Virus record (IMG/VR): IMGVR_UViG_2537561992_000040 | Reading direction: 5' to 3' (one strand) | DNA from: a virus | Taxonomy: Duplodnaviria > Heunggongvirae > Uroviricota > Caudoviricetes | Length of the DNA stretch: 6,107 nucleotides | Shown here: in pieces, positions 1-5,767 of the stretch | Numbering within the stretch: position 1 is the first letter of the stretch | How the letters are laid out: every line of letters starts with the position of its first letter | Made by a program: the position numbers and the translations under genes | The notes under the pieces: generated by a model | The model's input: the letters and a program-made list of their open reading frames with translations, nothing else | Told to the model about the DNA's origin: nothing | The model's database searches: none

Positions 1-342
1 ATGATGAAAAAAAGTATTCTGACGTTTCTGTTACTCACCAGTTCTGCAGCGGCGCTGGCTGCACCGCAGGTGATTACCGTCAGTCGTTTTGAAGTGGGTA
101 AAGACAAATGGGCGTTTAATCGCGAAGAGGTGATGCTGACTTGCAGACCGGGTAATGCTTTGTATGTCATTAACCCAAGTACCCTCGTGCAGTATCCTTT
201 AAACGATATCGCACAAAAGGAAGTTGCCAGTGGGAAGACTAAAGCCCAACCCATTTCGGTGATTCAGATTGATGATCCTAACAATCCCGGCGAAAAAATG
301 AGTCTGGCACCGTTTATAGAACGAGCTGAAAAACTCTGTTAA
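1..342 (+). CDS. yebY: Small secreted/periplasmic protein, YebY-like (DUF2511 family), 113 aa
   Basis: ATG at 1, stop at 340-342. N-terminus [23 protein letters not shown] looks like a Sec signal peptide with an ALA-A cleavage motif. Length and sequence match my recollection of E. coli YebY, the last gene of the yobA-yebZ-yebY cluster. A hairpin terminator follows directly. Name is from memory, not a search. Confidence 0.7.
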
Positions 343-371
343 TTACCTAAAATAGCCTTTTGATTTCCAAT

Positions 372-412
372 AAAAAACCGCCTCAGTTCTTTCACCAGAA
401 CGGGCGGTTTTT
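372..412. terminator. Bidirectional Rho-independent terminator (yebY on +, candidate RyeA on -)
   Basis: Stem AAAACCGCC (374-382) pairs with GGCGGTTTT (403-411), with inner GTTCT/AGAAC pairing. T-run 408-412 on the + strand and A-run 372-377 (T-run on the - strand), so it can terminate in both directions. Confidence 0.6.
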
Positions 413-483
413 AACATTTCAGCTGATGACCACCACGCTTTTTATTGACCATTTTGCACGCAAACTGGAAAACCTGGCGTCGT

Positions 484-497
484 CATCTATTCTTAAA
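484..497 (+). promoter_or_regulatory. Sigma-S-type -10 element for the SdsR-like sRNA
   Basis: TCTATTCTTAA at 486-496 matches the extended sigma-S -10 pattern (T/C at -14/-13, TATACT-like hexamer, TAA downstream). The predicted start about 7 nt downstream coincides with the GCAAGG 5' end at 500. No convincing -35, as is common for sigma-S promoters. Confidence 0.5.
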
Positions 498-499
498 GG

Positions 500-602
500 G
501 CAAGGCAACTAAGCCTGCATTAATGCCAACTTTTAGCGCACGGCTCTCTCCCAAGAGCCATTTCCCTGGACCGAATACAGGAATCGTATTCGGTCTTTTT
601 TT
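500..602 (+). ncRNA. sdsR: SdsR (RyeB)-like small RNA, about 103 nt
   Basis: Sits between yebY and the prophage junction. 5' end GCAAGGCAACUAAGCCUGCAUUAAUGCC... matches what I recall of SdsR. 3' hairpin CCGAATAC(571-578)/GTATTCGG(586-593) is followed by UCUUUUUUU (594-602). The sigma-S -10 upstream fits the known RpoS dependence of SdsR. Confidence 0.65.
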
Positions 603-668
603 AATTGTATTTAAAATCAATTAGTTGCAAACGTCTCCCCGAAATTACTCGAAATTTACTCGAATTTC
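584..668. other. Candidate prophage attL (core in sRNA 3' end, IHF site, arm-type repeats)
   Basis: Layout parallels lambda attL (bacterial DNA, core, H' IHF site, P' arm sites, int). Candidate core is the sdsR terminator 3' half (586-602). AAATCAATTAGTTG at 615-627 matches the IHF consensus WATCAANNNNTTR. Tandem direct repeats GAAATTACTC / GAAATTTACTC lie at 641-661. The int stop is at 694-696, with int reading toward the site. Confidence 0.45.
641..668. repeat. Tandem direct repeats GAAAT(T)TACTC x2 plus a partial third (GAATTTC); putative integrase arm-type sites
   Basis: 641-650 GAAATTACTC, 651-661 GAAATTTACTC, 662-668 GAATTTC. Position between the candidate core and the int 3' end matches lambda P' arm-site placement. 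Confidence 0.45.
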
Positions 669-693
669 TGTATTCCGGTCTTTTTTGGTTATA

Positions 694-1809
694 TCACAAC
701 CAAAACACATTTAACAATCCATTTACGTTAAAATCAGAGCAGTAGTACGTTTTTTCTCTCTCATCAAGATACATTTTTGTTGTCTTCTCCGATGTGTGGC
801 CAAGTAGACGTTGAGCAAATTCTTCCCCACATGTTTCTTTGTACAATCGTCCAGCCAGGCTTCTGATCTCGTGAAAAGTTGGTGGGTTTTCACTGAACTG
901 GATACCTGTTAATTTTCTGGCTGCGACAAATTTCTTTGTCAGGCCGTCCGGGTGAATGCTGCCGTCAGGGCTGTTTTTTCTAATCCCGGCACTGATTAGA
1001 TAATCCCCCCTACTTACCATGCGGCACTGTTCAACTACTGTACCAAGTCGTAAACCAGCGACAGGAAGGCTGAGTGACAGGGGGATAGCAATCATCATTC
1101 CTGTCTTAATTTGCCTGATGTGGAGACGATCATCATAAATCTCACTGAACCGCATATTTGTTATGTCTTCGCGACGTTGTCCTGTTACAAGGGCTAAGTC
1201 CATAGCTAATGGGAACCATGTCGGAAGTTGATCTGCTGCCTCCCTGATGCAGTTGTATGTCTTTAGTTTCAGCCGTTCTCTTGTAACTACTATTTTCGGT
1301 GCTCTTGTTGGCGTTACTGGATTTTGAGATATACGTCCTTCAACAATGGCCTCGCGGAACATATCAGATAACACAGAACGCATTGATCCTGCCATCGTGT
1401 TTTTCCCTCCTTCAATCCACAAATCAAGAAACTCGGCAATATGGCGAGTGGTTATTTCTGTCAGTAAAACCCCTCCTAATTTTTCTTTTATTGTCTCCAG
1501 TTGATTTACCCGAATTTTATAAGTATTTCTGGACACTTTTCTCCTTATAAGAATCGTTTTGTAACGTTCAATCCAGTCTGCCATAGTAAATGAGTCGAAC
1601 CCTTTTAGTTTTTCAATTAAGGCAGCAGGAGAGTAGTTTTTGTATATATAATGATTTGCTTCAATTGCCTGCGCTACTGCATCTCTTCTTGAAATTTTAC
1701 CTAGTGTAAATTCTTCTTTCGTCAGAGGGTTGCGCCAGTAATATGCTTTGTCCCTCCTTCGATATGTTAAGTTTTTAGGTAAATTGGGATCGTATTTTTT
1801 CCGCTGCAT
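694..1809 (-). CDS. int: Lambda-family tyrosine integrase, 371 aa
   Basis: N-terminus ...[27 protein letters not shown] parallels lambda Int ...PPNLYIRNNGYYCYRDPRTGKEFGLG. Catalytic-core motifs are present: TGQRREDI (Arg), [15 protein letters not shown] (His-x-x-Arg), [13 protein letters not shown] (His and Tyr nucleophile). Starts with ATG at 1809, overlapping the xis 3' end, and lies next to the att site. Confidence 0.9.
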
Positions 1810-2056
1810 GTTTTAACTTCTCCAGTAACGGACTGTCTCTCCCTTGTCGCCCATTAGGCTGATGGTGTGTTATATCGGTATCAACCTTATTTGGGTTGAT
1901 ATAGAAAGCTTCCGGAACCACCCTGTAACTCCTCCCGTGTAGTTCAGGTGCAGGATAAATGTTTCCATTCCTTGCCCATCGTCTCAGCGTTGATATTGAT
2001 GGTGGGTTATCCGGATATCTGAGTTTTCCCCACGTTTTGAGTGTCACAAGATTCAT
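1775..2056 (-). CDS. xis: Excisionase (lambda Xis-like), 93 aa from the second ATG
   Basis: MNLVTLKTWGKLRYPDNPPSISTLRRWARNGNIYPAPELHGRSYRV parallels lambda Xis MYLTLQEWNARQRRPRSLETVRRWVRECRIFPPPVKDGREYLF. Overlaps the int start by 35 nt, as xis-int does in lambda. SD AAGAGG has good spacing to the ATG at 2056; the ATG at 2062 is too close to the SD. Confidence 0.75.
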   Translation of the reverse strand: MNLVTLKTWGKLRYPDNPPSISTLRRWARNGNIYPAPELHGRSYRVVPEAFYINPNKVDTDITHHQPNGRQGRDSPLLEKLKHAAEKIRSQFT

Positions 2057-2162
2057 TGCCATACCTCTTACGATATGACCGCCAGTAAATATACAGAATA
2101 CTGGCGGGTGTGGTTGATTTTTAATAATCAGCTATGAAGTTCTAATTTGTATATAATGCAAC

Positions 2163-2351
2163 TCACGAGGACAGAAGTTTCTCGCAATTAAAATTTATCA
2201 GCTTTACTTTCTGCTCTCTGGACACGCCTGCTTCTTTTTTCCCTGAGAGCATTTTTTCGCATTCTGATTTCGTTAATTTAGATTTTGAATATCTTGTCCA
2301 GTTAGTAGGAGTGCCACCTTCTTTTTCAATAGTGGCAGTTATTTTATACAT
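2163..2351 (-). CDS. Small hypothetical protein, YdaC-like by position (62 aa)
   Basis: Internal ATG at 2351 is preceded by GGAGGT at about 5 nt spacing and overlaps the ralR stop (ATG at 2349-2351, TAA at 2344-2346), suggesting translational coupling. Occupies the position of ydaC between xis and ralR in Rac. The 86-aa form in the ORF track (start 2423) would overlap ralR by 80 nt and is less likely. Confidence 0.5.
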   Translation of the reverse strand: MYKITATIEKEGGTPTNWTRYSKSKLTKSECEKMLSGKKEAGVSREQKVKLINFNCEKLLSS

Positions 2352-2538
2352 GAACACCTCCATTATTATTTCCAGTAGTTCGTTTATTCCATCTTTCGAG
2401 TGCTTCTTTTTCACTTCCACCATAGCCAGTTCGGGATTCGCATCCGTTGCATTTTGCCCGGTAATATCCTGAAATTGCTTTCACTGTAACAGATGGACAA
2501 CCACAAAACGGACATGGTTTAACATCGTCATATCTCAT
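2344..2538 (-). CDS. ralR: RalR/Lar-like restriction-alleviation protein and type I toxin (64 aa)
   Basis: MRYDDVKPCPFCGCPSVTVKAISGYYRAKCNGCESRTGYGGSEKEALERWNKRTTGNNNGGVHV has a CxxC...CxxC zinc-ribbon-like pattern, and matches the length and sequence I recall for Rac RalR (Lar). Lies immediately downstream of recT as in Rac. In-frame ATGs at 2550 and 2577 are alternative starts; none has a strong SD. Confidence 0.75.
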   Translation of the reverse strand: MRYDDVKPCPFCGCPSVTVKAISGYYRAKCNGCESRTGYGGSEKEALERWNKRTTGNNNGGVHV

Positions 2539-2594
2539 AATTTTTGTCATAAAAACTGTCTCACGTTGGCGGTGCATTACACCGCCAGGCTGAA

Positions 2595-3404
2595 TTATTC
2601 TTCTGAATTATCGATTACACTGTATTCCCCGGTTAATACAGAGGAGTCTGCCGGATCGATTGTCAGTGGTTCCTTTTCATCCATTGATACTGCACGCTGG
2701 ATTTCAATTGAGACAGGCAGGTATTTAAACAGGCGACGAATAGCCGTTTTTTTTGCCATTTCTTCCCAGTGAGTTACCCATGGCCCGTTATTACCAGCCT
2801 TACTCTGGCTGCGCACCAGTTCAATCTGTTTGCGCGTCATAACTTCAAACTGAGTCCCTCCGTCTTTCAGTCTTGCGACAGCATAGACGTGGGTCACTGG
2901 TGCATCTTCGTTTTCTCCCGGGCGGTGTATTAACTTTTCATCAAGGCCAAATTCAAAACTAAACTCGTCACCTTCACGGACAACACGGGCTGACAGGCTG
3001 GCGATTTGACCAGAACGGCGAGCCAGATCAATCATGCCGCGATAACCAATGATTAGCTGAACGTTCTTTTTACCGCTCTTTTCGTTTTTATTACCAAAAG
3101 GCAGTAAATATGCGTGGCCGAGGGCGCTACCTGGCTCAAGGCCGAGCTGTGAACACTGAACGATCGCACTGACAAAACTCATGGTGTCACAGTTTCCTAG
3201 CGCCGGAACCTTACGAATTTCTGTGGTGGCGATACGTATCATTCGTTCAGCCGTCATATGGCGTGGGAGAGCTGCTGCCAGTTGCTCTTTCATTGATGGC
3301 TGATTAATAAAGCTGATCACGTCGTTATTTTTTACTGCTGCTGGTGCACGGTTTCCCTGGGTTTTTTGCAGATCGGCTTTTGCGATAGGTGGTTGCTTAG
3401 TCAT
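2595..3404 (-). CDS. recT: RecT single-strand annealing protein, 269 aa
   Basis: From [16 protein letters not shown]... the ORF matches RecT of the Rac prophage in length and sequence as I recall it. SD AAGGAG sits 7 nt before the ATG at 3404. The start overlaps the recE stop by 8 nt (ATGACTAA), the known recE-recT arrangement. The track's 288-aa start lies inside recE and is rejected. Confidence 0.9.
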
Positions 3405-5767
3405 TTGCATACTCCTTAGCCCAGCGGGGCAGTGATAACGTTTTAATAGCTGGCCATTCATCGGTATTCAGGCAGTCAGCCAGGGTCCTCAGATTGCGGT
3501 GATATTCCTGCTGGCCTGCCAGTTTTGCTTCTTCGCCCATCATGAAAATCTCAACCGGGTAACGTCCGCATTCAACAGTTGTGCTGGCAACCAGAAAAAC
3601 GAAAGTTGGCAGCACGCCAAACTGTGCTTCATAACCGTCACTGTAGAATGCATCCTGAACGTGATAGCGGTAGTCGTAATAAGCCGTTTTGAATCGTTGA
3701 ATATCCGCTGTGGTTTTCACGTCCATGATCCAGTGAAATTCAGGAATAATTTTGTCCGGACGGCACCGACACAAAATTCCTGTTTCCGGATCTTCCCAGT
3801 AAATTGATGATTCAGCGTGTCCGGCGCTTTCAACAAGCCATTGCCCCAGCGGCAAAGCCATAACGCGTTGATACATGAGTTCAATTTTCCGGCCTTCTTC
3901 CGCAGTGATAACCGTTTTTCCTGTGCTTGCGCATTCCATCAGAAACGCTTTCTCTTCTTCTTTTCCGGCGTTTGTACGGCGGTTAAATTCAGGTGCTACG
4001 ATAAAGCGGTTACTGAATTCTTCCGGTTCAAGTACCCGGCAGTGGAAAGCGGTTCCTAAATCGAGCGTTTTTGTCTTTGTAGTGTCCACGGGGGCATTTT
4101 TACGCCACAAATACAGTGCCGGAGTATCAGCAATGTCATCGAGCTGAGACTTACTGACGCCGGGACCCGCGTGGTAATTCTCATTCGAAATTCCGTAATA
4201 AATACCTGGCTCTATGTCTTCTACGATTACGGGATCTGCGACTTCGCCAGTTTCATCACTGCAATCGCGATGCGGATCGCTGCCAGCATTCTCATTGTGC
4301 GGATGTTCAGCGCCTTCCATTTCCTCCGGATCTTTTTCCTTAGCTTCAACCTGATTCTCTTCACCGAATGTTTCCTGGTATGTTGCGTCGCCCATCACCG
4401 CACCACAGTCAGGGCAGTTATCCCCGCCAGTCTGACCGCAGGCATTGCAGACTATTTCCGGTTCCTGTTGCACTACTGGCTCAGGTTGTTTCGCATCCGG
4501 GCTGATTTTTTCCGTTTCTGGCTGGTTCTGGTACACAGAATCGCGAGTCTGGATCCCCTTAACCCATTTCGGATCGTTCGGGTCGCTAATTCCGTCAACA
4601 AATTCACCACGTGATGCAGCAAGCAATTTATCGGCATCGACAGGATTTTTTGATGGAATGTTTTTCCGGGCTTCATGGAGTTCTGCCCGCAGTTCCTGAT
4701 ATTTCGCATCAACAGAATTTACCTGTGACTGAGCATCCAGCGGCTGCGTGTTCTGATGATGTTCAGTTGCATTCGGTTCCACTGTTTCAGCCGTTGCCTG
4801 TTCATCTGCCATTGCGCCAGATGGTTGTGGTTTTTCTTCATCGTCCTGTTTTCCTTCTTCTGTTACTCGTTGCGGCATCGGGGCCGAGGAGCGACCGCAG
4901 GCAATATCCACGATTTCCGGATCAGGGTTGGCATGATCGGTTTCAGTCAGTACTTTGTTCAGATATTCAGTGACGTGTGCGGGGATGACCTCGATCCCAA
5001 TTGGTGCTTCTTTCACGGACGCAACCACGATGGCGCGGGAATAATCCAGCCCGCCAGGCATGGTGATGAATTTGTCGCGGAAAACAGAAAAGGGTGGTTT
5101 ATTTTCAGCGATAATTTCCTCAATGCGTTTAGCGTGTGCCGGATGAAGGTTATAGATGTCCACGTCCATTGAACGGGCCAGTACGCCAGTGGCTACATCG
5201 CGCGCCAGTGATGTCAGATCGTGGACGAAACCTTCGCCGCGATCGGTGAGGTTCCCGCCGCCAGCATTAGCACCGGAAGCCGTGCGAGTGATGCGTGAAA
5301 CACGATTCCCTTTTCGCCATTCTTTTGTCAGAAGACCGCGATCAATGTGTTCGGTATCCAGCCAGGCTGAAATGAAATTCTTAAATTCATAGGGCTGATG
5401 TTTTTTCGTGATAGAGAACACTGCCTTAATTGCATCAGTCAGGCGGAGCAGGGCGGCATTATCCAGAGTTGTCGGTTCTGCCATGCTGCGTATGGCCAAC
5501 AGCAGATTCTGGACATAGCTGTTTTCCTGATCCATCTCAAGAGCAGTAATGTGTTTGCGTTGTTCACGGGTGGCATGATGCAGGTATTTTCGATCCCCGG
5601 CTGCATACGTAAAAATGTGCAGAAGACGCTGTGTGAACCGCAAAGTGGCTACAGAGACTTCGCAATCCTGGCAATCCTCGTGGGCGTCTGCCTGCGCGTT
5701 TTCTTCCTGGCCTCCCGTCGGTTCTTCGGTTTCCGGTGCATCCTCCTGATGGTGAACGTCGTCTGGC
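3397..5767 (-). CDS. recE: RecE (exodeoxyribonuclease VIII), 5'-truncated by an IS insertion; C-terminal nuclease region intact
   Basis: C-terminus ...[56 protein letters not shown] and the internal region DRGLLTKEW...[27 protein letters not shown] match recalled RecE. The frame stays open up to the IS terminal repeat at 5768. The track ORF reaches 5793 only by using a GTG inside the IS end. About 790 recE codons remain, against 866 in K-12 RecE (recalled), implying roughly 75 N-terminal codons displaced. Confidence 0.85.

Follow-up and report, generated by a model that had tools for sequence, protein, structure and literature searches.

A prophage attL at the sdsR terminator: a probable crossover in the terminator loop and a conserved phage-borne near-copy of the C' half-site

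The window (the whole 6,107-nucleotide stretch of DNA that we analysed) very probably carries at 569-693 the attL (B-O-P') of a lambdoid, rac-like prophage, inserted by a lambda-family integrase at the intrinsic terminator of the small RNA gene sdsR (ryeB). Comparison with the other attachment sites places the strand exchange around the terminator loop, and a near-copy of the C' half-site beyond the P' arm-type repeats is best read as a conserved DNA element. This element appears to be undescribed. Considering that the insertion hot spot and the lambda attL layout are already known, most of the finding is confirmation; the useful points are the precise crossover, the phage-encoded 3' end of SdsR, and the conserved C'-like element, which lies in the P' arm at a fixed distance from C'. 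Coordinates of the features are collected in Table 1.

Table 1. Features annotated or predicted in the attL region and the adjoining genes (window coordinates)
Feature	Position	Strand	Basis
RyeA (SraC) antisense remnant adjoining sdsR	462..606	-	Rfam RF00101, 179 bits
sdsR (ryeB) sRNA gene	503..602	+	Rfam RF00111, 118 bits, full length; 588 onward phage-supplied
SdsR terminator hairpin, then T-run	568-596	+	Terminator scan
B, left terminator stem arm, host-derived, probable core-type Int half-site, GACCGAATAC	569..578	+	Inverted repeat; Int binding inferred
O, probable 7-bp overlap AGGAATC = terminator loop	579..585	+	Polymorphisms place exchange in 577-587
C' half-site GTATTCGGTC plus T-run, phage-supplied SdsR terminator 3' half	586..602	+	Identity to pPE4 attP
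H', IHF consensus site (predicted), AATCAATTAGTTG	615..627	+	Perfect match to 13-nt consensus WATCAANNNNTTR
P'1 arm-type repeat CCCGAAATTA	638..647	+	YYCGAAWT at +56, all attP/attL sites examined
P'2 arm-type repeat CTCGAAATTTA	648..658	+	YYCGAAWT at +66
P'3 arm-type repeat CTCGAATTTC	659..668	+	YYCGAAWT at +77
Phage-borne near-copy of C' (GTATTCCGGTC plus T6), full GTATTCCGGTCTTTTTT	670..686	+	In three phage-record attPs
int, lambda-family tyrosine integrase, arm-binding N-domain	694..1809	-	PF09003 + PF22022 + PF00589; RefSeq
xis (excisionase), overlaps int start	1775..2062	-	RefSeq "excisionase" within ORF; same-position gene in relatives: PF07825

The crossover and the sdsR locus

We compared four attachment sites: the attL of the window, the attR of E2865, the attP of PP818812.1 (pPE4), whose integrase is 98% identical, and the attB represented by the empty site of K-12. 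The attB of the actual ancestor strain was assumed to be K-12-like, and the flank of the E2865 attR agrees with this. Position 582, the centre of the 7-bp terminator loop (AGGAATC), served as the zero point for att coordinates. The K-12 attB reads GACCGAATACAGGAATCGTGTTCGGTCTCTTTTTATCTG and is parsed as GACCGAATAC AGGAATC GTGTTCGGTC TCTTTTT ATCTG, and the attP reads GACGAAAACAGGAATCGTATTCGGTCTTTTTTTAATTG, parsed as GACGAAAAC AGGAATC GTATTCGGTC TTTTTTT AATTG. On its left side attL has the host version (…CCGAAT, with T at 576) and on its right the phage version (A at 588, T7, AATTG); attR is phage on the left and matches K-12 exactly on the right (G, TCTCTTTTT, ATCTG…). The informative differences thus fall at 576 (T versus A) and 588 (A versus G), and the segment common to all four sites is ACAGGAATCGT(A/G)TTCGGTCT. 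These host/phage polymorphisms therefore limit strand exchange to 577-587 (ACAGGAATCGT), which comprises the terminator loop and two bases on either side of it. With the crossover mapped here, 588-602 is phage DNA and the crossover is unambiguous. The preliminary description had taken 586-602 to be the core and had left the crossover point ambiguous, proposing comparison with attR and attB as a check; that comparison shifts the core leftward and assigns 588-602 to the phage C' half-site and its T-run.

Positions 569-578 and 586-595 form a 10/10 inverted repeat with a 7-nt spacer, and attP has GACGAAAAC at the left arm. The sRNA 3'-end segment at 586-602 (GTATTCGGTCTTTTTTT) is the same as in the pPE4 attP and unlike the K-12 attB, which has GTGTTCGGTCTCTTTTT. 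The predicted core is thus laid out as a canonical tyrosine-recombinase core, with two inverted half-sites around a 7-bp overlap. We propose that the stem arms would act as inverted core-type sites and that the strands would be exchanged in the 7-nt loop (AGGAATC, 579-585), with the phage DNA to the right of 588 supplying a substitute 3' half of the terminator that would leave SdsR intact. Binding of integrase and IHF at the sites named here as core-type, arm-type and IHF is inferred from their position, symmetry and conservation. Junctions in other prophages were also inspected. A tandem junction in Yersinia (L081) shares identity only from TAGGAATC onward, consistent with the mapped exchange, and a few related attL sites have mixed polymorphisms next to P', for example GTG or TCTC. 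In Rahnella (L089), no recognisable sdsR junction was found within 300 bp of int.

In 2002, Williams reportedly treated integrases whose targets are symmetric stem-loops in tRNA and tmRNA genes, a study cited in PMC3603311. By analogy, the site described here would likewise use the dyad of an RNA-gene hairpin as its core, with the overlap in a 7-nt loop and the stem arms as inverted sites, and the phage would likewise bring a substitute 3' end so that the gene stays functional. The hairpin differs in kind, being the Rho-independent terminator of an sRNA and not an anticodon or T-loop. Mapping of the crossover to the SdsR terminator loop would thus provide a clean sRNA counterpart of integration into tRNA anticodon loops.

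The gene order in the window is yebY (1-342), the convergent pair sdsR/ryeA, int, xis, ralA/ralR, recT and recE. The junction at 577-587 lies within sdsR (503-602), with yebY to its left and pphA past attR, which places the prophage at the sdsR hot spot. As summarised in excerpts of PMC7380047, Balbontín 2008 (J Bacteriol 190:4075) described ryeA/ryeB as a hot spot of insertions at which PhiW104 attaches, the site lying inside ryeA and in the final 23 bp of ryeB; in the same summary, PhiW104 lysogeny replaces the 5' part of ryeA and alters the expression of both ryeA and ryeB. Passages of PMC3333887 and PMC3603311 also refer to the ryeA/ryeB hot spot. The prophage in the window shares its target with PhiW104 and the Salmonella ryeA/ryeB hot spot, as that hot spot is described in the excerpts of PMC7380047. 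The P' arm is laid out in the same way beside Salmonella-type relatives of this integrase, and the window integrase, from an E. coli O26-type chromosome, is 72-74% identical to the Salmonella/Citrobacter ones. In Yersinia enterocolitica (L081, GCA_040259775.1), the P' arm is joined on its left to the arm of another element with CCCGAAAAATT-type repeats and not to sdsR, an arrangement that looks like tandem occupancy of the hot spot.

Insertion at this position has consequences for both RNAs of the locus: the 3' end of SdsR is phage-encoded in the lysogen, and the native ryeA start is moved by about 46 kb. The last 15 nucleotides of SdsR (588-602) read GUAUUCGGUCUUUUUUU in the lysogen and GUGUUCGGUCUCUUUUU in K-12 (L004 2099-2145, minus strand), so that a G-U pair becomes A-U and the U-tract is uninterrupted. 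We considered whether the phage supplies a stronger terminator stem and rejected this, as the K-12 and lysogen hairpins are both predicted at -15.8 kcal/mol and the U-tract is the sole difference. The K-12-annotated start of RyeA lies 38 nt past the sdsR 3' end, and the K-12 flank that begins ATCTGTTAAAAGCC sits at attR. Those 38 nt of RyeA, along with any promoter beyond them, are therefore found at attR (L003 about 21960-22003), with 603-640 as their counterpart in the window. Considering this displacement, RyeA in the lysogen must start in phage DNA or arise by read-through from int. The displaced start fits the effect of PhiW104 lysogeny on ryeA reported in the excerpts of PMC7380047. A leftward promoter candidate for a RyeA-like RNA (TTTGCA-16-TACAAT, 631 to 604) was discarded: it matches at 9/12 positions, about one chance match is expected in the region, and by eye it is not kept in Salmonella-type sequences.

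The IHF site and the arm-type repeats

The P' arm would be lambda-like in its order, with an IHF site (615-627) followed by three arm-type repeats (638-668). The H' site spans +33 to +45, compared with +32 to +44 for lambda H', and the two agree at 14/15 positions (ATCAATTAGTTGCAA versus ATCAATTTGTTGCAA). Chance matches to the IHF consensus are expected 0.37 times over both strands of the whole window, yet this one falls 1 bp or less from where lambda has H', more than chance would account for. In close relatives the site varies mostly at N positions; in distant lineages its 5' half is degenerate and the TTR half is kept. The three direct P' repeats are 10-11 bp long and start at +56, +66 and +77 (638, 648 and 659), and P'3 has zero variable columns in 50 E. 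coli-type haplotypes. The same motif recurs in the P arm: both attP and attR have it at -149 and -128, and two phage records that are more distant have it at -149 or -151. The sequence of the repeat varies by integrase lineage, being CCCGAAATT in E. coli, CCTCGAAATT at Salmonella-type loci, TCCGAAATT in Serratia and Cronobacter, and ACACGAAAAT in Yersinia and Pantoea, and its positions are fixed. Variation by lineage at fixed positions is the pattern expected of arm-type sites that co-evolve with the integrase N-domain, and the lambda-like attL reading is thus well supported. The site is also adjoined by an arm-binding, heterobivalent tyrosine integrase and an excisionase, as in a lambda-type attL.

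All of the elements listed in the preliminary description are present in the sequence where it had placed them, and its lambda-like attL reading is borne out by the H' IHF site, the P' arm-type repeats and the adjoining int and xis genes. Several details need amendment. The IHF site is real, and the 14-nt string quoted for it begins at 614, a slip relative to the 13-nt consensus at 615-627. Tandem repeats do exist at 641-661 (GAAATTACTC at 641-650 and GAAATTTACTC at 651-661), but the count of two missed a third at 659-668. The repeat unit, which had been given as ending in ACTC, is conserved as YYCGAAWT, and the perfect ACTC tandem occurs in only 8 of about 70 close relatives. We looked for the repeats in homologous phage att regions and found them there.

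Comparison with lambda reveals both shared and distinct features. The integrase is homologous to that of lambda along its full length, and there is a probable 7-bp overlap between inverted half-sites. Three contiguous P' repeats lie at +56/+66/+77 here and at +52/+63/+73 in lambda; the outer P-arm site is at -149, with lambda P1 at -144; and int and xis directly follow. In contrast, the target here is an sRNA terminator, whereas that of lambda is the gal-bio intergenic site, and neither the arm motifs nor the core motifs are related to lambda's in sequence. The second P-arm motif is direct here rather than inverted. The int stop also lies at +112 rather than +80, so that about 30 extra bp follow P'3 and carry the C' copy, whereas in lambda the int stop overlaps P'3.

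Two observations concern the outer part of the P arm. A mirror core-like copy at its outer end (GACCTGAAATA at -162) was rejected as an element of the site, since it occurs in E2865 only and is absent from three phage attPs. At the far end of the arm, about 290 bp from the core, a G+C-rich hairpin of 12-14 bp is followed by a U-rich stretch on the int-sense strand (L001 2655-2725 in attP and L003 22270-22340 in attR; -29.6 kcal/mol, z = -4.1). The position of this hairpin recalls lambda tI/sib, and integration would part the hairpin from int.

The near-copy of C'

The preliminary description had noted a second, imperfect copy of the sRNA 3' end at 670-686, and had offered it either as a phage-borne segment of att homology or as the scar of an earlier integration. 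Among 2,000 simulated 6.1-kb sequences, just one contained a copy of the 16-mer GTATTCGGTCTTTTTT with one edit or fewer, so that chance does not account for the near-copy, and a repeat search places the starts of C' and the near-copy 84 bp apart. Three phage records, PP818812.1, OK490361.1 and OL617042.1, carry the near-copy in their attP; besides PP818812.1 they are Salmonella ZC-S1_prp, a prophage-derived record, and the Flyfo siphovirus, a circular genome (Int only 51% identical). It is also present in every related prophage recovered beside yebY/sdsR. These loci comprise about 70 from E. coli/Shigella, others of Salmonella/Citrobacter type, two lineages in Serratia, and further ones in Yersinia, Pantoea, Cronobacter, Citrobacter portucalensis and Cedecea, along with a clade of 80 viral contigs (L094-L173). 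The first of the two proposals is thus right as a description, given that the element occurs in phage attP sites. The second would make the near-copy a relic of integration and excision at the hot spot, with two candidate crossovers. Repeated insertions are known at sdsR (Balbontín 2008, as summarised in excerpts of PMC7380047; passages of PMC3333887), and in the Yersinia locus the junction is a tandem one that involves a second element. However, the near-copy lies within the attP of phage records and on the phage side of the 577-587 crossover, the empty K-12 site has no copy, and the distance from C' is fixed at 83-85 bp in 13 integrase lineages. We therefore regard a scar as extremely improbable.

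These 13 lineages, in which the integrases are about 50-100% identical in amino acid sequence, come from several genera. Across them, the near-copy is 0-2 edits from the C' 9-mer TATTCGGTC and 2-4 edits from the lineage's own arm motif, and that alignment also shows the spacers between the P' elements to have diverged. A scan of genome contigs yielded two loci, and the range of relatives was drawn from viral contigs and exact-protein look-ups. In 50 E. coli-type haplotypes, P'2, P'3 and the near-copy vary least and the spacers most. The near-copy departs from C' at a single shared position in most lineages (TTCGG to TCCGG or TTCCGG), and in one clade it reads TATCCTGTC. Possible covariation between its first base (G or A) and the final base of the left, host-derived stem arm (C or T) was compared by eye, with agreement in 6 of 9 lineages.

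We tentatively favour the reading that the near-copy serves the assembly of the recombination complex as an accessory, core-type half-site bound by integrase, although we rate this somewhat below an even chance. It is favoured because the near-copy tracks the core half-site and not the arm motif. Whatever its function, the near-copy is a fixed part of the phage attP, a copy of C' placed about 84 bp (about eight helical turns) out, directly after P'3 and just before the int stop. Two points count against an accessory half-site: the change that recurs at one position could make a core-type site proper less effective, and lambda has no core-type site in its arm, with no precedent found. A broader version, in which the attP of this whole sdsR-targeting clade, spread over many enterobacterial genera, carries an extra core-type half-site about eight turns out that the complex requires, is a more doubtful proposition. 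In that version, the half-site might, for example, hold the catalytic domain of the P'3-bound integrase or set directionality. If it were true, the extra half-site would be an exception to the rule, seen in lambda, that confines core-type sites to the crossover; and if the near-copy binds integrase, it would be a new component in a very well-studied recombination machine and would matter to those who use these integrases as site-specific tools.

The near-copy could instead be a fourth arm-type site, inverted and bound by the N-terminal domain of the integrase, with its likeness to the sRNA secondary. The element abuts P'3, with which it forms an imperfect palindrome; its reverse complement, GACCGGAATAC, has CCG.AAT in common with YYCGAAAT; and lambda P2 is likewise inverted relative to P1. 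However, the arm motifs vary among lineages (CCCGAAATT, CCTCGAAATT, TCCGAAATT and ACACGAAAAT) while the near-copy stays C'-like; moreover, the arm-invariant CGAA is broken in most copies (CGGAA or CGGAT). We consider an inverted arm site unlikely.

We also considered whether the near-copy acts as RNA, either as a back-up terminator for SdsR read-through that pairs with the left stem arm and loop upstream of its own U-run or as an element of the int mRNA 3' UTR. The inverted repeat 573-584/664-675 is 92% complementary, and the predicted fold of 560-692 has a long-range helix ending at a U-run (-28.7 kcal/mol, z = -2.5). In most lineages the copy is followed by 3-6 Ts. In contrast, the terminator scan finds just the SdsR terminator at 568-596 and predicts none at 630-692, the fold of 630-692 is no better than that of shuffled sequences (z = -0.06), and no hairpin partner for the near-copy is conserved between lineages. 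The earlier remark that the near-copy forms no terminator hairpin accordingly holds by both scan and fold. The T-run is missing in the Flyfo phage and in the L094-L173 clade because the near-copy there overlaps the int stop codon, and the T-run is thus not essential to the near-copy. In addition, the local SdsR hairpin forms first during transcription. An RNA role therefore seems still less probable than an inverted arm site.

The near-copy might, finally, have no function and be left over from an old duplication of the att core in an ancestral phage, still recognisable for lack of time. The copy varies at one position, and two copies are a recombination liability, as two loci illustrate. In L025 (IMGVR_UViG_2728369554_000022), a deletion between C' and the near-copy has taken out the IHF site along with all three P' repeats, so that sdsR runs straight into the int stop region, and this prophage has probably lost the ability to excise; in L029 the near-copy is perfect. 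Such a liability is not an obvious asset, as would suit a relic. However, the copy and its spacing persist while the spacers diverge and the integrases are only about 50-74% identical, and within E. coli the diversity of the near-copy is below that of the spacers. A relic is in our view improbable, to much the same degree as an inverted arm site.

The prophage and its integrase

The window has its matches in E. coli chromosomes, and STEC strains of O26 type are numerous among the best-scoring ones. Bases 1-5767 are 100% identical to E2865, in which the prophage is about 46 kb long and ends at attR beside pphA. The segment 5767-6107 behaves differently: where a strain matches over the full window, the match is broken into three pieces and has IS600 annotated under it, and the many strains that match in one piece stop at 5767. 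The right end of the window is therefore not contiguous with recE in those strains. The integrase aligns to lambda Int structures with E = 1e-71 over residues 8-353. Its stop codon is TGA (TCA on the + strand, 694-696), and its real start is probably 13 codons downstream of the start of the ORF, since homologues are 358-359 aa long. The antitoxin sRNA RalA is present at full length (219 bits) at 2167-2345, opposite ralR, so that this sdsR-integrated prophage carries a rac-type type I toxin-antitoxin system.

The record PP818812.1 was deposited as "Actinobacillus phage vB_Apl-pPE4", a phage of A. pleuropneumoniae. The host given there looks doubtful, considering that the integrase is 98% identical to the E. 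coli one and that the enterobacterial sdsR terminator forms the basis of the attP. In Cronobacter (L085), Citrobacter portucalensis (L086) and Cedecea (L090), the annotated int stop lies 50-75 bp farther from the near-copy than in E. coli, and the sequence TTATACCACA, which is the end of int in Salmonella-type relatives, persists as non-coding DNA. This arrangement suggests that the 3' end of int has been replaced in these three lineages.
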